Origin: an uncultured archaeon
GTDB taxonomy: Archaea > Asgardarchaeota > Lokiarchaeia > Sigyniarchaeales > Promethearchaeaceae
Direction: 5' to 3'
Length of the DNA: 23,057 nucleotides
Assembly: GCA_964426185.1 (NCBI GenBank)
Contig: CAYRPF010000007.1
Coordinates: 17,650 to 40,706 of the forward strand
The translations under genes and the position numbers were made by a program. A model generated the notes under the pieces. The model was not told the DNA's origin and did not search any database. It saw only the letters and a list, made by a program, of their open reading frames with translations. This document shows positions 260-11,697 of this stretch, piece by piece. Position 1 is the first letter of the stretch. Each line of letters opens with the position of its first letter.

Positions 260-3200
260 ATGTCAAAGCGAAGAAATAAATTTTTCAATATTGGAATTTT
301 GGTCGTTCTGATTATTGTTTCTGTCTCTGGAAGCATTAACCTTCAATACGATGCTAATTCTTCGGAAAACTCAAGCAATTCTCTCAAAAATGACCAAAAT
401 ATTATGAACATTGCAGATAGTAGCAAGCGTTATAATCTTCCTGATTTTATTCTGCCAAAAATTGCCTCTGAAACAGGATACAACGAACGATTGTATGTAG
501 ATATAAATCCTGAAGGATACGTTTATTCGGAATATGGTTTTGGTGGCCCGAATATTCAACTTGCCGGAAAAACCTTGGAGATGATAAAAAATAATTTTCC
601 GGAAGAATTTGCGGCTTTTAGATGGGGCGATTGGTGGTTGGGTTATTCAGACAATCCATGGGATTACAATTCAAGAGTAGAACTCACTTTTGAAACTGCC
701 GACCATGAGCAAGCACGAGGATGGGCAACTTGGATGATGGATTTCGTAAATGCGTTTGTTTACACAAGTTATTATGAAGATGGCATTTCGTCTTGGGATG
801 AGGAATGGGATGGAACGTGGCATACTATAACGAAAGTATCATTTGTAACTCATGTAGAATGGCCATTGGTCATGGAAGACTACAACAGTCTTATACCCCA
901 AGAATATGGTGGTATTGCCGCAACTATTAATATTAGTGGAGCGAATGCGTTGAGAATGTGGATGTGGAAAGGAGGTGATAGAATATATCAATCTTTTGGG
1001 GCATCTTGGCAAAATGAAGTATCTGCATTAGAAGGCGGTTTTCATTATGAGGTTAGGGATTTTATACCATTTACAATTTTGCAACGTTCTCCTTATCAAA
1101 ATTCAGAAGATCCTCTCGAAATAACTTGGAAACTTCCTGAATTATGGAATTTAAACTATTCCGCAGGATGTTGGCATGAATATCATCCAAATGTGGAGGA
1201 ACCTTGGAATAAACATGAGTATTATACAGTTCGTTTGGAGATAAATGAGGGCGATTCATATTCTGAATGCTGGGTGGAATTCGTTACCACATTTCATCCG
1301 TGGGAAACTTTACCTGTTGAAAAGGTCAGGAAAGAAATTAATCCATATGGATATGAATTCACAAGTATACAAGTGCAACATGAAAATGCTTATTTCTATG
1401 ATTTATATCAATATATTCCTATAATGCCAGATTTATTCCATATTTCTTTTAGAATCTCCAAAGCAGATCCGTGGAATAACCGTAATGCTTCAGTAGCTCT
1501 CTTAGATATATATTTTCTTAATCCAGGGAATCACCAAGCAAGTATTAATATTTTAATTAATGATTTACAATCTACCTATAATTGGGCTTTAACGTCAAGT
1601 TATAATTGGTCTGATTGGCTTAATTGGGGTGATTTTTATTCATCTGAATCTGATCATTGGGAAATTAAATTTAATACTTCAGATACTAGTACAAATTGGA
1701 CGCAATATTTGACCGATTCATGGATTTATAGTCAAAGCGAAATGCTTAAGAATTCTAATCTAAATGAACTAGATTCCTTTGTAGAATCTCTTGATTATTA
1801 TCAAAAAATGGGGGGATATTGGATGTCAGATCTAGAATGTTTTTGGAATTCTATTGATGTAATGACAAAAGATCCAATTAAAACTTATTCCGAATTTGAT
1901 CTTAATCCACACACATTTGATTTTGCCTCTCAATTGGGTTGGACTAGATTGAATGTAAGTGTTGGGTTCCATCACAGCGAGTTCTATGCCAGAATTCCAA
2001 TTAGTAATGATTGGGATGGATTTGATATTATCTATCCTGAATATAATAACGGCTATGGATTCAATATGTGGTACCGGTTTGACTGGAATTATTATAATGT
2101 TGAGATGCTCGAATTACAAGCTGAAATCTATAGTAACGATGCATATTATGAAAAAGATGCAACTTCCCATTATGTGAACAATTTTATGATTGATTTTGAC
2201 TATAATTTCCATTCGGACACTGATGATATTATACCACCAGGAGGAGAGTTTGGATGGTATAATCAAACCTTGCAAGAACCAATTTTTTGGGGACATGAAC
2301 AATTCTTGAATAAAGGTTCATACAATGATCAGGAGAGAATAACATTCAATGCTTGGGATAGCACTTGGTTGAATTTCTGGGGTAATGAAATCTATAATGG
2401 AACTGATATTAATGGAGATCCTCAGTTTTATCCCCGTTTTCCGACCAGTGAAATTGTCAATGTAACCTATGACATTTGGTGGGGTGATTTTTCTATTTGG
2501 CATGAAGATTTTCATTGGTTCTATCAAATGGAGTATAATTCCACCCAAAATTATTGGTATCATGATTTGAATACTACAATGATGGCAGATGGATGGTATA
2601 ATTTAGATGCTAATATAGAAGATGCTTCTGGAAATGTAGGATACTCAGTTTCTGGGATTTTTGTGGATAATTTCAATGAATCATATGTAAATCCTGCAAC
2701 TGTTGAATTCTTAGAGCCAACACCTTTAAATGGTAGTGTGGTGAATAACACGGTTACCTTTAAGTTGAATTTAACCGATGATATTGGTGTTTTTGCGGCG
2801 GTTTACACCAAAGACGGCACCGGCTATGTTTTGGATGAAGATAATTACGTGTCTGAGGGAGTCTATGAAATCACATGGGACACTTGGAAAGAAGAAGAAA
2901 ACAGTTGGCATCTCTTTAGTATCACCGTCTGGGATATGGAAGGACATAAAACTATAGTTTATTACAGTTTACAAGTAGATAATCTACATCCCGGCGTAGA
3001 ACCCTTTATTGAGATAATTTCACCTGCCACTTCAGGCGAAAAATTGCAAGGATTTTATACATTTGAAGTTAATATCACTGATGATTGGGGTATTTCTTCC
3101 GTGCAAGGCCGTATTGATGAAAGAGTAGAAGAAGACTTAGTTTTCAATAATATAACTCAATTATGGGAATATACTTATGATATTACTTCCCTTATTCATG

Positions 3201-4393
3201 GTACGCACAATTTTACTGTAAGGGTAATAGATGTTGATGAAGAGCAACACATTAGAGAAGTTTCGATTGATTTCTTTGTAGATAAGCTACCAAAGATCGA
3301 ATTTATCTCACCCTCGGAGAACGGCTTAGTTTTAAGTGGTGAAATCACTTTCACTGTAAATGTCACAGATGACGAAGGAATCCAGTTAGTGCGCGTACAA
3401 TTTGATTCTGAGCCCTTTGAAGCTATGACACTAAATGAAGGGACTGGTTTTTATGAAATAACACGCAATGTTACGATACTGGTTAATGGAACACATACTT
3501 TAACGGTAGAAGCACGAGATATCGATGTGTATCAGAATATTATAACCGAGACTTTGATATTTGAAGTTAATGATTCTGTTACCATCCCATCTGGTGATGA
3601 TCCGATAATAACATGGATTAACCCAACAGCAGAGGGCGAACATTTAGGTGCCGAAATGTTTACTTTCACAATTCGATTAACTGATGACTACGGAATAACA
3701 AGTGTCAAGGCACAAATAGACTCTGGAAATTTCATCGCCATGTCTTATGATTCAACAGACGATGTATGGATTTTTAATTACAATCTACAATCTTTATCGA
3801 TGGGGGCCCATACTATTACTATTGAGGTGATAGATAGTGATCCAACACCAAATATAGTCCAATTCAGCCGAACATTTTATGTTGAAGTAATAACCCCGCC
3901 TGATTATCGGAATGTAGTACCAGGAAATTTCACCAGTGCTGACGATATCTTTACCGATCCGATTGATTTTTCAATTGAAGTTTCAGATGATGATGGAATT
4001 GCCACCGTTAGGATTCAAATATACGAAGTAACTGGAGTTACCCTTACGGATGTGAATTCCCCAGGTGATGTGGATCTTTCCGATGTGCGAATTTTAGATG
4101 GATATCCTATGGACATGGATGAAGGAGCAACTGTAGATGATTGGACTAGATATACTAATACTTGGGATATTTCTCAAGCAAGTTCAGGGTTATATTTGGT
4201 AGAAATCATCATTGCAGATAATAGCGTCTTACAAGGGTCCACGACGGTAAAGATGCTGGTGATCGTTCGAAATTCCAGCATAGCTGAAAATCCGTTCGGT
4301 AATATTCCTGGATTTCCGCTGGAAATTTTCACTATTTTGCTCGGAATTGCGGTAATCTCGCAGTATAAACGCATTAAAAAGGTAAAAACTTAG
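260..4393 (+). CDS. Large secreted, C-terminally anchored cell-surface glycoprotein with tandem Ig-like (Big-type) domains and a PGF/Loki-CTERM-like sorting tail
   Basis: Basic N-terminus plus hydrophobic stretch (MSKRRNKFFNIGILVVLIIVSVSG). At least five ~95-100 aa repeats with a P-x-I-x-(F/I/W)-x-x-P...F(T/E)V(N)xTDDxG(I/V) pattern. Many NxS/T sequons and acidic composition. C-terminus IPGFPLEIFTILLGIAVISQYKRIKKVKT. Confidence 0.85.
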   Translation: MSKRRNKFFNIGILVVLIIVSVSGSINLQYDANSSENSSNSLKNDQNIMNIADSSKRYNLPDFILPKIASETGYNERLYVDINPEGYVYSEYGFGGPNIQLAGKTLEMIKNNFPEEFAAFRWGDWWLGYSDNPWDYNSRVELTFETADHEQARGWATWMMDFVNAFVYTSYYEDGISSWDEEWDGTWHTITKVSFVTHVEWPLVMEDYNSLIPQEYGGIAATINISGANALRMWMWKGGDRIYQSFGASWQNEVSALEGGFHYEVRDFIPFTILQRSPYQNSEDPLEITWKLPELWNLNYSAGCWHEYHPNVEEPWNKHEYYTVRLEINEGDSYSECWVEFVTTFHPWETLPVEKVRKEINPYGYEFTSIQVQHENAYFYDLYQYIPIMPDLFHISFRISKADPWNNRNASVALLDIYFLNPGNHQASINILINDLQSTYNWALTSSYNWSDWLNWGDFYSSESDHWEIKFNTSDTSTNWTQYLTDSWIYSQSEMLKNSNLNELDSFVESLDYYQKMGGYWMSDLECFWNSIDVMTKDPIKTYSEFDLNPHTFDFASQLGWTRLNVSVGFHHSEFYARIPISNDWDGFDIIYPEYNNGYGFNMWYRFDWNYYNVEMLELQAEIYSNDAYYEKDATSHYVNNFMIDFDYNFHSDTDDIIPPGGEFGWYNQTLQEPIFWGHEQFLNKGSYNDQERITFNAWDSTWLNFWGNEIYNGTDINGDPQFYPRFPTSEIVNVTYDIWWGDFSIWHEDFHWFYQMEYNSTQNYWYHDLNTTMMADGWYNLDANIEDASGNVGYSVSGIFVDNFNESYVNPATVEFLEPTPLNGSVVNNTVTFKLNLTDDIGVFAAVYTKDGTGYVLDEDNYVSEGVYEITWDTWKEEENSWHLFSITVWDMEGHKTIVYYSLQVDNLHPGVEPFIEIISPATSGEKLQGFYTFEVNITDDWGISSVQGRIDERVEEDLVFNNITQLWEYTYDITSLIHGTHNFTVRVIDVDEEQHIREVSIDFFVDKLPKIEFISPSENGLVLSGEITFTVNVTDDEGIQLVRVQFDSEPFEAMTLNEGTGFYEITRNVTILVNGTHTLTVEARDIDVYQNIITETLIFEVNDSVTIPSGDDPIITWINPTAEGEHLGAEMFTFTIRLTDDYGITSVKAQIDSGNFIAMSYDSTDDVWIFNYNLQSLSMGAHTITIEVIDSDPTPNIVQFSRTFYVEVITPPDYRNVVPGNFTSADDIFTDPIDFSIEVSDDDGIATVRIQIYEVTGVTLTDVNSPGDVDLSDVRILDGYPMDMDEGATVDDWTRYTNTWDISQASSGLYLVEIIIADNSVLQGSTTVKMLVIVRNSSIAENPFGNIPGFPLEIFTILLGIAVISQYKRIKKVKT
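2693..4270 (+). repeat. Protein-level tandem Ig-like repeats (at least 5 copies) within the surface protein
   Basis: Recurring motifs LTDDIGV, ITDDWGI, VTDDEGI, LTDDYGI, VSDDDGI, and G(T/A)H(N/T)(F/L/I)T(V/I) strands. Confidence 0.8.
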
Positions 4394-6714: not shown

Positions 6715-7905
6715 TTATTCAATAATTTTTAGTTCTTTTCCAACGCGCTCCATAATTTCTAAGGCATCATCCACATCTTTTTCTGAATGCGTGGCAATAA
6801 TGCTCGTCCGAAGCAATTCGTGGCCGATAGGCACTGCTGGCTCCATATATGGATTGGTATATACTCCTTCATCCAATAATCTTCTCCATAATCTAAAATT
6901 CTTAACTTGTTCACCTACAACTATCGGTACGATAGCAGCTTCGCTGTGTACGGTTTCAAATCCTAAATCTACCAAACCCTTTCGATATCTTTTTAATAAT
7001 CTTCTAACGTTCTCTCTCATATAATCTCCTTTCCGAATTAATTCAGTTGCCTTTATCGCGCTGGCCACCGATGCAGGAGGCATACTGGCACTGAAAAGAA
7101 AACTTCGCGCGGTATGTTTCAAATAATTAATAACCTCCTCGCTACCACTGGCAAAACCCCCAATGCTTGCAAAAGATTTAGAAAATGTGCCTGATAAGAT
7201 ATCTACATTCTCATTTTTAACTTTCAAATGGTTTGGAGTCCCCTCCCCATGTTCACCTAAAACCCCTGTCCCATGTGCATCATCCAGCATTATTTTTACA
7301 TCGTATTGTTTAGCCACTTCTACAATTTCTTTTAATGGAACCATATCGCCTTCGATGCTAAAAACACCTTCGGTAACCAGAAGCTTTCCAGCTCGTGGGG
7401 GTAGTTCTTTTAATTTTGCTTCCAAGTCATGGTAGTCGTTATGTTTATAAACAACAGTTTTTGCTTTTGATAGTCTGCAACCATCTATAATAGAAGCATG
7501 ATTTTTCTCATCGGATATTACAAAATCTTTTGGTCCCGTTAACGCGCCGATTATCCCAGTATTTACTTGAAAACCGGTAGTAAAAGCGATAGTATCTTTA
7601 TATCCGAGAAAATCGGAAAGGTCTTTTTCTAGTTTATTGTGGAGGTCCATAGTCCCATTAAGTAATCGAGATCCAGTGCATCCAGTTCCAAATTGATCAA
7701 TGGCTTCTTTAGCGGCTTGTAACATTTCAGGATGGTTGGTCAATCCCATGTAATTATTACTGCCCAGCATAATCGTTTCTTTGCCTTCTATTATAGTTCG
7801 TGGTCCAATTGTCGCTGAGAATGGAACAAAATAAGGATAAAGACCATATTTCTTAAATCTCTGCGGTTCTTTGAACCGTCTGGCTTTTTTAAATAAATCT
7901 CCCAT
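6715..7905 (-). CDS. PLP-dependent alpha-oxoamine synthase (aminotransferase class II), closest by motifs to bacterial serine palmitoyltransferase; BioF/KBL are alternatives
   Basis: GSNNYMGL, GSRLLNGT, NHASIIDG, EGVFSIEGD, DDAHGTG, PLP-lysine motif GTFSKS (7174-7191), FSASMPP. The family call is secure; substrate specificity is inferred. Confidence 0.85.
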   Translation of the reverse strand: MGDLFKKARRFKEPQRFKKYGLYPYFVPFSATIGPRTIIEGKETIMLGSNNYMGLTNHPEMLQAAKEAIDQFGTGCTGSRLLNGTMDLHNKLEKDLSDFLGYKDTIAFTTGFQVNTGIIGALTGPKDFVISDEKNHASIIDGCRLSKAKTVVYKHNDYHDLEAKLKELPPRAGKLLVTEGVFSIEGDMVPLKEIVEVAKQYDVKIMLDDAHGTGVLGEHGEGTPNHLKVKNENVDILSGTFSKSFASIGGFASGSEEVINYLKHTARSFLFSASMPPASVASAIKATELIRKGDYMRENVRRLLKRYRKGLVDLGFETVHSEAAIVPIVVGEQVKNFRLWRRLLDEGVYTNPYMEPAVPIGHELLRTSIIATHSEKDVDDALEIMERVGKELKIIE

Positions 7906-8097
7906 GATGACATCTACTCAATTTTACTGAGATGTTAAATAACTTTACTTGGTATTTTAAAAATATTTTGTTTCACTTATTCACTAAAGCGGTAATCCCG
8001 AAAATTGAAATAAAAATAACGAAAAATTAAAAAAATATTATGGGAGTTAAATATTAAGTAAAATTTCCGCCTTTTAAGGCTTGGTGTAGTTTTTGTG

Positions 8098-11000
8098 ATG
8101 AACGATCTTCATTTTATTCAAGAATATAAACCGATTGCGATTAATTTTAAGGATTTTTCTTCTAAACAAATTAATATCACATATAATTTTCCTCTGTTTT
8201 GCACCATCTCGAAAATGCTCCAAACAAATCAAGAAAAGGGTTTCACTTCTGTAATGATTGAGGATGTAAAAGGAGAACAAATGCTTGGATTTGTCTATCA
8301 ACAAGCTGCCGAAATATTAGCCCGATTATCGCCTTCATTATTTCCTTTAACGGTAATTGTATTCAAAGGGGTTTTTAAAACATTACCTTCTAAACAACGA
8401 TTTTTAGAAATTCATCATATAATTTTAGATAATTTTACGTTTATCAATTCCAGCGCAATTGGTGGCCATGAATACTGTGAAATTCAATCTTTTCTAGATT
8501 TATATTATGGTGTATCAAGTGAACCCAACGAATATTTGTTATGGGGAAATTTAATTCATGATTATTTAGCGGAACTATTTGGGGAATTAAATTCATGGAA
8601 AATGATAAAAAAAATATCCAAAATGTCAATATTGAGGGCATTTGAGATTGCATTGGCTCATAACTGGCAGTATCTGGCAGTTTTAGGGAAATCTGAGAAT
8701 GAAATTCGAGAAGAATTCTTGCAAAATTTTGCAGTCAATGAATGGGAATTTTTACAAACCCATTTTCAAGAATATCGAAAAAAATATAATTCTTTTGAAG
8801 TTTTTTGTGAAAAATTCGTGCAATCTCCTGTAATTGGATTGCAAGGACGCATTGATAGATTGATTTTAGACAATCAAAACCACCAATGCACTATTATTGA
8901 AACTAAAACTGGCCGAAGTAAACGATCTTCTCAGTTAATTGCCTATTATCAAGGTTTAACCTATGGGGTGATTTTGAATGATTTATTTAATTGGCGGATT
9001 TCCGAGATTTTAATTGAATATCCCCGTCATCCACCTTCAGAACGCTTTGCTTTTTATCCAGTTTGCCAAAAAAAAGCAGAAAGCAAGGATGTTAACAGAA
9101 ATAAAAAAGATGAGAATACTAAGGAAAATGACTTTTCACTCTATGAAACGCCTGATTTTTTGCGGATCATTCAAATTCGGAACAAAATTTGGAGTTTTTT
9201 GAATGGTTTAGCTCCAAAGAAAATTCCCGATACTCCTTGTGCCCAGTGTAATTCTAAATCTAAGTGTGTGAATTATCGTTGGCTGTTTCCTGAAAAATTT
9301 TATCCACAATCAACATCAGCCATCACTCCAGATAAAAATCCTAGTTTAACTAATTATATTAGGCAAGAAATTTTAGATGATTTAATTCGCCAAAATCTCA
9401 ATTTGGGTAATATTTCGCGCTCACTGAAGCAATGTTTGCGTTTTTATTTAGAATGGTTCTATTACTTTATCGATCAAGAATTTTTGATGCAAAAGCATAT
9501 CAGATTGGAAAGTTTTAATAATATTTCCATTCAAGAAGAAAAAGGGCTTGCAATAGGCGGATTAAAACTAAAACTTAATAATATCGGCAAATTTCCCACA
9601 GAAAGACAAGAAAATGAAAATGGTTCAGCGCAGTATATGTTTGAGATGTATTTCACCCACCAAATTGAATCTCAAAATTCTCGATTTCGTGCAGGAGATT
9701 ATGTAGTTATAACACCCGAAACTTTAAATAAATATAAAATTGGGGGTTTATCTGGCATTTTAGTGGAAATAACTGCTAATTCTTTGATTGTAAGCACTAT
9801 TGAATCGTTTACAAAATTTGGATCGAATTATAATGAACAAGTTTATCGCATTGATTTTTCTGTTTCCAATTATCACCTTTGGCAGTATAAAGGAGCAATT
9901 GACCAATTTCTACAAGCAGCACTTCAACCCGCTTATCCTCATCATTCTTTACTGAGAGATATCCTACTAAATCAGCAATTTCCTCGAAGTATTCCAAAGA
10001 AATTGGATCAAATTTACAAAAACTCCAAACTTAATCAATTATCAAATGAATCTTCTGATAGTAGATCTATCATATCTCTCAATGAGAGTCAAGAAGAAGC
10101 CGTAAAATGCGCTCTTCAAGCAAAACGGTTGGCTTTAATTCAAGGTCCTCCTGGTACTGGCAAAACGACAGTTATTGTTGAAATCATTCATCGGTATTTA
10201 TCTTCATTGACCTTGTCCAGTCAAGATTCACAATCACACAACTCGGGAATGTCGGGGACAACAGAAAAAAGAAGAAAAGGGACCTTAAACCGCTTCATTC
10301 AAACCAAAAATCGCTACGTTCCGCCAAGAATTCCCATCTTGTTGTGTGCTTATACTAATAAAGCGGTAGATACTGTAGTTGAAAAATTAGTGCAATCTTA
10401 TCCAAAAATCAAATGTATTCGGGTGGGAAATGTTCATAGTTCTAGCTCGACTGTGGTAAAAAGTTATAATTTGGAGGTTCTTTCAACCGTAAAGAAGAAA
10501 ATTCAAACCTCTTCGGGTGAAAAAGAACAGTTTACAGTAGATCCATTAAAAGTCCGAATGTTGCTGGAAAGTGCTGATGTTATCGCCACTACTACTATTA
10601 AGGCAGGAACGTTATTATTGCAACCCTATTCATTTGTATTGACAATTATTGATGAAGCGGGGCAAGTGGTGGAACCTGGTGTGTTAATTCCCTTATTGAA
10701 GGGGAAAAAGGGAATTTTAGTGGGTGATCATCAACAATTACCTCCTATTACACATTTTTCTCCCGATATAGAAGAGAAAAATCTTCAAATTTTGCAGAAT
10801 TCTTCTATTCGCGAAAAATTAAATTTTGATTGGAGCAACGGCATAAATAGAAGTCTTTTTGAGCGTCTTATCCCACAATTTAAGGGTACGAACAATTTCA
10901 GTTTATTGAAAATCCAATATCGCATGCATAAAACAATTTCTCAGTTTATTTCTCAAACTTTTTATCAAGGAGAATTAATTCCTGGTGAGATCGAGGGTCG

Positions 11001-11697
11001 AAATATTGGAGAAATTTCTTGGTTGGATATTTTTACCAAATACTATGAAAAATTTGATCTTGAAGAAATCAAAACCCGTCTTAAATCGCCTGTAAATCAA
11101 TTAATTTGGGCTTCGGAACAAAGCATGATCTTTTTAGATACTGCAGATCTTCAAGCATTTGACTCTTCAAAAATTAACTCGAAAAATATTGCTAGTTCAA
11201 AATTTAATACAACTGAAGTTAAGATAATAGCTTCTATAACTAAAGCTTTTCTCGATTTATTGCAAATATCAAACTTCTCGCAAGAAGTAATCCAAGAAAT
11301 TTTCAGCAATCTTGGAATTATATCGCCTTACCGGGCTCACAACGCAAAAATCATTAAAATGATTAAAAAAACAGAAATTTTCGAACATATATCGGTGGAT
11401 ACGGTAGACAGATTTCAAGGCAATGAAAAAGAGGTAATTATTTACAGTTTTGTGGATTCATGCCCTGAACATATTATCAGTTCCTTGACCGCTGATTATC
11501 GACGTTTAAATGTAGCCATCAGTCGAGCCCGCAGTAAGATTATTTTTATCGGCGATTCAACCACACTTACAACCATATCTACTGAAATTTCCCCACAAAC
11601 AGCAAAAATTAAATCAATTATCTCTCAATTAATAGTACATGTAAAAAAAAATGGCGGATATTGGTTAATGCAACCAAATGATTACTATTTAAATTAA
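8098..11697 (+). CDS. Dna2-like nuclease-helicase: Fe-S PD-(D/E)xK (Cas4/AddB-like) nuclease fused to an SF1B (Upf1/Dna2-type) helicase
   Basis: Nuclease: C at 8476, GNLIHDYL, EKFVQSPVIGLQGRID, IETKTG, QGLTY, CAQCNSKSKC. Helicase: LNESQEEAV, GPPGTGKT, AYTNKAVD, IIDEAGQ, LVGDHQQLPP, SLFERL, QYRMH, TVDRFQGNEKE, RRLNVAISRAR. Confidence 0.9.
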   Translation: MNDLHFIQEYKPIAINFKDFSSKQINITYNFPLFCTISKMLQTNQEKGFTSVMIEDVKGEQMLGFVYQQAAEILARLSPSLFPLTVIVFKGVFKTLPSKQRFLEIHHIILDNFTFINSSAIGGHEYCEIQSFLDLYYGVSSEPNEYLLWGNLIHDYLAELFGELNSWKMIKKISKMSILRAFEIALAHNWQYLAVLGKSENEIREEFLQNFAVNEWEFLQTHFQEYRKKYNSFEVFCEKFVQSPVIGLQGRIDRLILDNQNHQCTIIETKTGRSKRSSQLIAYYQGLTYGVILNDLFNWRISEILIEYPRHPPSERFAFYPVCQKKAESKDVNRNKKDENTKENDFSLYETPDFLRIIQIRNKIWSFLNGLAPKKIPDTPCAQCNSKSKCVNYRWLFPEKFYPQSTSAITPDKNPSLTNYIRQEILDDLIRQNLNLGNISRSLKQCLRFYLEWFYYFIDQEFLMQKHIRLESFNNISIQEEKGLAIGGLKLKLNNIGKFPTERQENENGSAQYMFEMYFTHQIESQNSRFRAGDYVVITPETLNKYKIGGLSGILVEITANSLIVSTIESFTKFGSNYNEQVYRIDFSVSNYHLWQYKGAIDQFLQAALQPAYPHHSLLRDILLNQQFPRSIPKKLDQIYKNSKLNQLSNESSDSRSIISLNESQEEAVKCALQAKRLALIQGPPGTGKTTVIVEIIHRYLSSLTLSSQDSQSHNSGMSGTTEKRRKGTLNRFIQTKNRYVPPRIPILLCAYTNKAVDTVVEKLVQSYPKIKCIRVGNVHSSSSTVVKSYNLEVLSTVKKKIQTSSGEKEQFTVDPLKVRMLLESADVIATTTIKAGTLLLQPYSFVLTIIDEAGQVVEPGVLIPLLKGKKGILVGDHQQLPPITHFSPDIEEKNLQILQNSSIREKLNFDWSNGINRSLFERLIPQFKGTNNFSLLKIQYRMHKTISQFISQTFYQGELIPGEIEGRNIGEISWLDIFTKYYEKFDLEEIKTRLKSPVNQLIWASEQSMIFLDTADLQAFDSSKINSKNIASSKFNTTEVKIIASITKAFLDLLQISNFSQEVIQEIFSNLGIISPYRAHNAKIIKMIKKTEIFEHISVDTVDRFQGNEKEVIIYSFVDSCPEHIISSLTADYRRLNVAISRARSKIIFIGDSTTLTTISTEISPQTAKIKSIISQLIVHVKKNGGYWLMQPNDYYLN

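Follow-up and report, generated by a model that had tools for sequence, protein, structure and literature searches.

Background

Sphingolipids are considered lipids of eukaryotes and bacteria. In bacteria, the gene for serine palmitoyltransferase (SPT, or Spt) forms a cluster with bCerS and CerR that was reportedly described by Stankeviciute et al. This cluster was used by Ding et al. in 2024 to define the 'Spt-like' clade B (ISME J, PMC11334938), which spans some 40 bacterial phyla and in which the gene often lies beside bCerS and CerR; no published survey of Spt-like genes is larger than theirs, and it turned up no archaeal metagenome-assembled genome with one. Our own search of the literature found no report of an Asgard or other archaeal SPT, and an archaeal lipid database and an Asgard lipid-transfer preprint report no archaeal sphingolipids. 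Here we describe an SPT-like gene on a stretch of 23,057 nucleotides from an uncultured archaeon of the Lokiarchaeia (Asgardarchaeota; assembly GCA_964426185.1, contig CAYRPF010000007.1, positions 17,650 to 40,706), which in its full length is called the window throughout. The encoded protein (the query) is an intact, conserved Asgard member of the SPT-like branch of the alpha-oxoamine synthases (AOS), sister to bacterial Spt, and a candidate producer of sphingoid-type long-chain bases. An SPT-like enzyme in an Asgard archaeon bears on the 'lipid divide' and on the question of whether organisms related to the host lineage of eukaryotes synthesise acyl-based lipids, and since the cultured Lokiarchaeum ossiferum has a member of the same Asgard clade (P0032), this question is directly testable.

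The closest described counterpart is the SPT of S. multivorum (PDB 3A2B, 8GUH), together with the other Bacteroidota enzymes covered by the NCBIfam model NF047600. The query is of equal length and likewise a soluble single-domain protein, finds its best sequence and structure match in the S. multivorum enzyme, and retains all of the named contacts of that enzyme to pyridoxal 5'-phosphate (PLP) and serine as well as most of its tunnel residues. It differs from the Bacteroidota SPTs in its score on NF047600 (470.7 bits, below the cutoff of 640), in its archaeal host, which has neither bCerS nor a specific CerR, and in its membership of an Asgard sister clade. The bacterial clade to which the Asgard proteins are sister resembles clade B of Ding et al. 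in its phyla and in its bCerS, CerR and PAP2 neighbours, and its signature residues are common to the Asgard proteins, whereas the Asgard clades branch outside the sampled bacterial clade and are without bCerS/CerR context. KBL and the promiscuous Thermus enzyme ThAOS (BioF/KBL; PDB 7POA) share with the query the fold, the catalytic His/Asp/His/Lys/Arg residues and about 41% identity. Unlike them, the query has Ser79 in place of Val, N83 in place of the Cys of KBL (Ala in ThAOS and in a KBL-like paralog from the same genome), YPYF in place of the N-terminal segment of KBL, A273 in place of Asn or Thr, and no tdh neighbour.

Phylogenetic placement

The query matches Aminotran_1_2 (PF00155) with 212 bits and thus belongs to PLP fold type I, with the class I/II aminotransferase fold. 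All motifs quoted in an earlier note on this DNA, which had read the gene as SPT-like, were found at the re-translated coordinates (Table 1), and chance resemblance is excluded by the Pfam score and by the match to S. multivorum SPT (E = 3e-111).

Trees were built from 120 database homologs, 80 named bacterial loci, 20 further Asgard loci, the three other AOS paralogs of the genome and a set of context-backed references (KBL beside tdh, BioF beside bioA/D/C/B, and ALAS); the plasmid records used for these references supplied labelled KBL, BioF and ALAS and no labelled SPT. A scan of species genomes with the query as a single protein gave no match, and an alignment-based scan did recover homologs. 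The topologies obtained with FastTree (213 rows), a quick IQ-TREE run (104 rows) and a careful IQ-TREE run (64 rows, LG+C20+F+G4) agree, and the supports below are the UFBoot/SH-aLRT values of the careful tree. Asgard and bacterial Spt-like sequences form a superclade (100/99) with KBL, BioF and ALAS outside it, and KBL groups with the KBL-like paralog of the genome (97/85); the clustering of the query with BioF or KBL that would have spoken for a housekeeping enzyme was not seen. Within the superclade there are two well-supported Asgard clades, of which clade I (100/99) holds the query, a second SPT-like paralog from the same genome, L. ossiferum and the family that we label f16, and clade II (100/100) holds families f7 and f29 and one f2 genome. 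The bacterial Spt clade is supported at 98/89, and all Asgard sequences as one group only at 89/47.

Gene context validates the bacterial sister clade as Spt. In 42 of the 80 bacterial loci a GNAT-type bCerS-like protein of about 377 residues is encoded directly downstream, 38 of the loci contain a CerR-like reductase of the NAD-dependent epimerase family and 12 a PAP2_C protein, and these contexts are scattered over the entire clade. As a separate observation, three sequences that are bacterial-labelled or unlabelled (P0073, P0064 and P0080, the last labelled Smithellaceae) are nested in Asgard clade I, in the subclade of the second SPT-like paralog, which suggests Asgard-to-bacterium transfer or mis-binning.

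Family assignment

The best NCBIfam model for the query is NF047600 (CFB-type serine palmitoyltransferase), followed by beta-proteobacterial SPT (397 bits), a BioF/KBL-related subfamily (393), KBL (392.7) and BioF (379.5); no curated cutoff among these models is reached. Calibration shows how the NF047600 cutoff is to be read. A Bacteroides SPT scores 717.8 bits, above it, and a Corallococcus homolog 511.7, below it; ten bacterial Spt proteins with both bCerS-like and CerR-like neighbours score 483–586 bits, all under 640. Since context-validated Spt proteins also fall short, the cutoff marks a taxonomic subgroup and is narrower than the activity. The query lies slightly below their range. Among solved structures, the S. 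multivorum SPT gives the highest score (375 bits), with lower values for S. wittichii SPT (302), ThAOS (301), KBL (295), CFAT (220–231) and CqsA-type structures (116). The AF2 model of the query (pLDDT 83.7) is confident except at residues 21–32, which correspond to the part of SPT that is packed against dimer interface and tunnel; its Foldseek TM score is 0.92 with 8GUH/3A2B and close to 0.9 with every AOS structure, a comparison without power to separate the AOS subfamilies.

It could be argued from this lack of fold discrimination, from hidden Markov model scores that still reach 380–393 bits on the KBL and BioF models, and from the label '8-amino-7-oxononanoate synthase' given to several homologs by JGI and NCBI, that the query serves a housekeeping function as a short-chain AOS, in threonine catabolism (as glycine C-acetyltransferase, KBL) or in biotin synthesis (as 8-amino-7-oxononanoate synthase, BioF). 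We consider this very unlikely and reject both identities. The curated cutoffs are missed for KBL (NF005394, 392.7 against 460) and for BioF (TIGR00858, 379.5 against 426.45), and a genuine Bacteroides SPT gives the same background scores on these models; labelled KBL and BioF are separated from the query at 100/99, and only one of 15 KBL-specific alignment columns has the KBL state in the query. Nor are these roles vacant in the genome (3.26 Mb, 92% complete), which has four AOS paralogs. One of them (C62), for which KBL-type models score best, forms a divergent gene pair with an SDR-type L-threonine 3-dehydrogenase (TDH) that has an N-terminal extension of about 80 residues and scores 400–458 bits against solved enzymes of that type; the pair is likely the genome's threonine-to-glycine route. 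Genome-wide searches for bioB (43.7 bits, cutoff 225) and bioD (39.7, cutoff 83.3) found neither gene; these absences, together with a biotin ligase encoded in the genome, are consistent with scavenging of biotin. As the earlier note had stated, no bio or tdh genes adjoin the AOS gene. The public BioF annotations of its homologs are probably wrong. The earlier reading holds insofar as the enzyme is SPT-like and neither BioF nor KBL; it needs the qualification that the protein misses the SPT cutoff and sits in a sister clade of Asgard sequences, outside the group of known SPTs.

Active site and acyl tunnel

The query aligns with S. multivorum SPT over residues 2–393 at about 45% identity, with a single gap of one residue, and the contact residues considered here were taken from the substrate complexes of that enzyme (PMC10196870). 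The AOS catalytic set is complete (K243, H136, D208, H211 and R366). The PLP and serine contacts His138, Asp210, Ala212, His213, Thr241, Ser243, Lys244, Phe114, Ala274, Ser185, Asn52, Gly80 and Ser81 are all kept, and N50, G78, S79, F112, N115, S183, T240, S242 and A273 of the query are identical to the corresponding residues of the structure. The tunnel residues Tyr25, Tyr27, Phe28 and Phe338 (the last being query F337) are conserved as well, with Leu substituted for Phe83, Leu for Met271 (query L270) and Thr for Ala79. Query S79 aligns with Val79 of ThAOS, an experimentally shown determinant of amino-acid selectivity; the V79S variant of ThAOS has its highest activity with L-Ser (PMC11906848). 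In cysteate acyltransferases the residues of the side-chain pocket are remodelled (PMC13692747); this CFAT/SulA pocket is not present in the query, which is SPT-type at F112-Q113-x-N115, S183, S242 and G78-S79.

Twenty-one alignment columns are Spt-specific, being conserved in bacterial Spt and different from KBL, BioF and ALAS. The Spt state is found at 18 of them in the query and at 16 in the second SPT-like paralog, and these counts do not constitute evidence independent of the tree. A good number of the columns line the active site or the tunnel, among them YPYF, which is common to the Asgard and bacterial Spt clades and does not occur in KBL, BioF or ALAS, L82 and N83 in the GTGCTGSRLLNGT loop, Q113, E185, A246, A273 and S368. 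The rule given in the earlier note, by which SPTs typically carry GSRxLNGT, fits bacterial SPT only.

Table 1. Coordinates of the AOS gene, its motifs and the AOS paralogs of the genome. Plain numbers are window positions; residue equivalences are to S. multivorum SPT unless stated.
Feature	Position	Strand	Remarks
SPT-like AOS coding sequence (P0001)	6715..7905	(-)	396 aa on re-translation; ATG 7905-7903, stop 6717-6715 (stop codon included)
GLYPYF, residues 21-26	7828-7845	(-)	Y23/Y25/F26 = Tyr25/Tyr27/Phe28, part of the acyl-chain wall
GTGCTGSRLLNGT loop, residues 73-85	7651-7689	(-)	G78/S79 = Gly80/Ser81, serine carboxylate and hydroxyl water network
TGFQVN, residues 110-115	7561-7578	(-)	F112 = Phe114 (PLP phosphate); N115 = Asn117; Q113 Spt-specific
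His136	7498-7500	(-)	= His138; stacks on PLP, anchors substrate carboxylate
S-I-E-G-D, residues 183-187	7345-7359	(-)	S183 = Ser185; Glu185 as in bacterial Spt, Asp in KBL/BioF/ALAS
DDAH, residues 208-211	7273-7284	(-)	D208 = Asp210 (PLP N1); H211 = His213 (PLP O3')
GTFSKS, residues 239-244	7174-7191	(-)	K243 = Lys244, PLP Schiff-base lysine; T240/S242 = Thr241/Ser243
FSASMPPA, residues 271-278	7072-7095	(-)	A273 = Ala274 (PLP phosphate), Spt-specific; Asn/Thr in KBL, BioF, ALAS
Arg366	6808-6810	(-)	Conserved AOS arginine, chelates substrate carboxylate (Arg366 in ThAOS); Spt-specific S368 follows
Divergent intergenic region, AOS gene/Dna2-like helicase gene	7906..8094	(.)	189 bp, 25% G+C
Second SPT-like paralog (C40)	C40:6181-7338 (L002:1465-2727)	(-)	49% identical to the query; NF047600 470.5 bits
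KBL-like AOS (C62)	L003:952-2139	(-)	
SDR-type TDH beside C62	L003:2219-3436	(+)	

Proposed function and acyl supply

On these grounds the enzyme probably makes a sphingoid-type long-chain base, with substrates and product that we infer from the sequence. As a soluble PLP-dependent AOS, presumably homodimeric, it would form an external aldimine between L-serine and the PLP cofactor anchored at K243, with H136, R366 and the G78-S79 loop positioning the serine carboxylate. A long-chain acyl thioester, either acyl-coenzyme A (CoA) or acyl-acyl carrier protein (ACP), would enter the hydrophobic tunnel formed by Y23, Y25, F26, L81, L270, F271 and F337, and decarboxylative Claisen condensation would yield a 3-ketosphinganine-like long-chain base. 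A possible source of the acyl chains is the lineage's own type I fatty acid synthase/polyketide synthase (FAS/PKS) megasynthase, perhaps by way of the eight AMP-binding (acyl-CoA-synthetase-like) genes present in the genome.

The megasynthase is represented in the genome by an open frame of about 2,459 residues that ends at the contig end (C9:53466-60842; L118:9467-16843, plus strand) and encodes ER(NMO), KS, AT and ACP domains; it is preceded by genes for a carboxyltransferase and a biotin ligase and, beyond these on the upstream side, by archaeal exosome genes. A complete homolog of 3,795 residues is encoded in a closed genome of the same genus (G210, L141:4088-15475), with the domain order ER(NMO)-KS-AT-(KS-like)-ACPs-KR-DH-PPTase and followed by an alpha/beta hydrolase. 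We found no report of a type I FAS/PKS-like megasynthase from Asgard archaea in the literature.

In a sample of 301 genomes of the phylum, with the SPT-like gene called at E <= 1e-100, the megasynthase is present in 57, mostly of families f7, f16 and f29. The SPT-like gene and the megasynthase, counted in that order, occur in 5/6 and 2/6 genomes of family f1, 14/28 and 25/28 of f7, 3/11 and 10/11 of f16, 9/11 and 11/11 of f29, and 1/69 and 5/69 of f2; neither was detected in f9 (0/76 for both), f14 (0/19) or f24 (0/21). By the count from this family survey, in which the genomes are kin, the megasynthase accompanies 26 of 33 SPT-like-positive genomes and 31 of 268 negative ones. The two genes thus occupy largely the same Asgard families, a pattern that is suggestive without amounting to a statistical test.

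Downstream steps and alternative chemistry

Several results weigh against synthesis of a sphingoid-type base by this enzyme. The first concern the downstream steps, for which bCerS-like, CerR-like and PAP2 profiles were built from the neighbour families of the bacterial Spt loci. Genome-wide, at the completeness given above, the best bCerS score is 22.7 bits against a member minimum of 173, the best CerR score is 148 bits against a member minimum of 238, that is, generic SDRs only, and a TLC-type CerS (PF03798) was not found, in a search that lacked a positive control and is accordingly weak. Across 26 Asgard loci there is no conserved partner gene beyond the family level, and the SDR and GNAT genes that neighbour the AOS gene in families f7 and f29, respectively, have no close counterpart in the query's own genome (best 31% identity). 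A second group of results concerns the assignment itself. The Asgard clades are sister to the clade with known SPTs and not nested inside it, so that the function of the query is not phylogenetically bracketed, and the trees were built without alpha- and betaproteobacterial SPTs and without eukaryotic ones. The SPT equivalog cutoffs are missed (NF047600, 470.7 against 640; NF047599, 397.2 against 500; NF047603, 335.4 against 670), and the query scores 73 bits above the next family, compared with 98–135 in context-validated bacterial Spt. The SPT-related superfamily includes non-serine enzymes, for example those acting on cysteate (PMC13692747). Finally, the co-distribution with the megasynthase among related genomes could reflect shared ancestry alone.

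The best genome-wide score on the PAP2 profile is 25.6 bits against a member minimum of 285, neither bCerS nor CerR is encoded in the window, and no N-acyltransferase or reductase partner for the presumed product can be assigned in the genome. Of the ketosphinganine reductase and ceramide synthase that the earlier note had proposed to look for in the genome, no bCerS, no specific CerR and, in the weak search noted above, no TLC-type CerS was found. Of its proposal of sphingoid-base synthesis, the SPT-like enzyme with matching serine-site and tunnel residues stands, and sphingolipid pathway partners were not found.

Some of these observations are also what one would expect if the Spt-like scaffold served another role, in which the enzyme would act on a different small amino acid (such as Gly or Ala), on an acyl-ACP of short or medium length or of polyketide origin, or on both, and would give a soluble aminoketone, a signal or a specialised metabolite. 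The Asgard clades lie outside the bacterial Spt clade linked to bCerS and CerR, no ceramide-forming partner was found in the genome, the two diverged paralogs in one genome (49% identity) differ at seven tunnel positions, the megasynthase may be a PKS rather than a FAS, and alternative amino-acid substrates have been proposed by Ding et al. (PMC11334938), in addition to the non-serine enzymes already mentioned. Set against this, every reported serine contact of S. multivorum SPT, direct or via water, is conserved in the query, the sites remodelled in cysteate enzymes are SPT-type, the tunnel-lining aromatics are kept, and the CqsA-type and CFAT structures score far below SPT. We regard such other chemistry as possible, if on the whole unlikely, and retain synthesis of a long-chain base from serine as the preferred reading. 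That the base goes on to a sphingolipid seems doubtful. A broader proposal, in which several Asgard families including the Harpocratesius lineage make sphingoid bases or sphingolipid-like lipids with megasynthase-built chains and with downstream enzymes unrelated to either bCerS/CerR or KDSR/CerS, is equally tentative and would, if anything, be a rather unlikely outcome.

The neighbours of other Asgard AOS genes are restricted to particular families or loci. An adh_short SDR gene lies directly upstream in family f7, GNAT and MFS transporter genes are the neighbours in f29, and in single Asgard loci the neighbour is a thioesterase-like hydrolase or a CoA-transferase-GNAT fusion. In one locus the SDR (276 aa, L125:6028-6858, plus strand) ends about 130 bp upstream of the same-strand clade II AOS gene (L125:6986-8197), and the arrangement recurs in L128 and L133, all within one genus of f7. 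An SDR in this position is the layout expected of a 3-ketosphinganine reductase, and it may be a chance neighbour. Being family-restricted and without close counterpart in the query's genome, the f7 SDR and the f29 GNAT/MFS genes were rejected as pathway evidence.

Relation to the eukaryotic enzymes

Eukaryotic SPT, a membrane heterodimer of LCB1 and LCB2 (SPTLC1 and SPTLC2), belongs to the same superfamily as the query and presumably catalyses the same type of reaction. The query differs from it in having neither an N-terminal membrane segment or extension nor an LCB1-like partner, and is of the soluble, presumably homodimeric bacterial type. Against human, yeast and plant LCB2 it scores 183, 153 and 180 bits, compared with 217, 204 and 190 for Bacteroides SPT; against alphaproteobacterial SPT it scores 302 bits, compared with 281 for the Bacteroides enzyme. 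The link to the origin of eukaryotic sphingolipids that had been drawn for this gene is thus not borne out, the query being less similar to LCB2 than is Bacteroides SPT, and on such sequence comparisons descent of eukaryotic SPT from an Asgard enzyme would be unsupported. A Nature paper of 2026 associates sphingolipid metabolism with Asgard archaea at the pathway level, without naming SPT (PMC12872458), and a 2026 preprint lists GBA2, SGPL1 and SGPP1 and not SPT. For the first step of the pathway at any rate, our comparison tempers the association described in PMC12872458.

Host and native status of the gene

That the DNA comes from an Asgard archaeon, which had been thought probable from the sequence, is confirmed by the closest homologs, labelled Ca. 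Harpocratesius, Kariarchaeaceae, Promethearchaeota and Lokiarchaeum, and by the phylum survey of related genomes. The closest ortholog of the query (80% identity) is from Ca. Harpocratesius, placed in Promethearchaeota by NCBI, and L. ossiferum is also among the nearest homologs. Because homologs of about 45–50% identity are plentiful in anaerobic bacterial phyla, and three bacterial-labelled or unlabelled sequences are nested within Asgard clade I, the possibility has to be considered that the bin is contaminated with bacterial DNA, or that the gene was recently transferred and is now decaying. The order of the flanking genes, however, is kept in Harpocratesius contigs and in the closed, single-contig genome of the same genus, and the G+C content of the AOS gene matches that of the window, which is uniform (0.32–0.36); together these indicate that the gene is native to an Asgard chromosome. 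The rest of the window is unremarkable archaeal chromosomal DNA and contains a gene for ribosomal protein L10e/uL16. The query falls in an Asgard-only subclade (99/95), and the gene is present in families f1, f7, f16 and f29 and in one f2 genome. Its reading frame is intact, and two close orthologs give dN = 0.0087 and dS = 0.351 (dN/dS about 0.025), so that the gene is under purifying selection. Contamination or decay is accordingly most improbable, and we reject it.

Further paralogs and neighbouring genes

The second SPT-like paralog adjoins an EutA-like gene and falls in a separate subclade (100/100) that includes P0032 of L. ossiferum. It differs from the query at tunnel positions 11, 17, 81, 112, 270, 271 and 337, a hint of differing acyl preferences. 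The fourth AOS paralog (C38, L004:1477-2658, minus strand) is 25% identical, sits on a long branch and has active-site changes such as K for R366; it adjoins a gene resembling that for the 3-keto-5-aminohexanoate cleavage enzyme (Kce; L004:332-1324, minus strand).

In the window, the neighbours of the AOS gene encode TrmO, a small unassigned open reading frame, a radical SAM protein, a Dna2-like nuclease-helicase and a type IA topoisomerase, and the region between the AOS gene and the divergent Dna2-like gene is its presumed promoter region. This neighbourhood is shared with Harpocratesius as a matter of kinship only and is uninformative on function. The Dna2-like protein (8095-11697, plus strand; 1,200 aa) is a PD-(D/E)XK nuclease fused to an SF1 helicase (AAA_11/AAA_12); the topoisomerase gene follows it directly, and both are syntenic in Harpocratesius. 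Syntenic there as well is a gene for a 1,377-residue protein with Big_7 Ig-like repeats (260-4393, plus strand).

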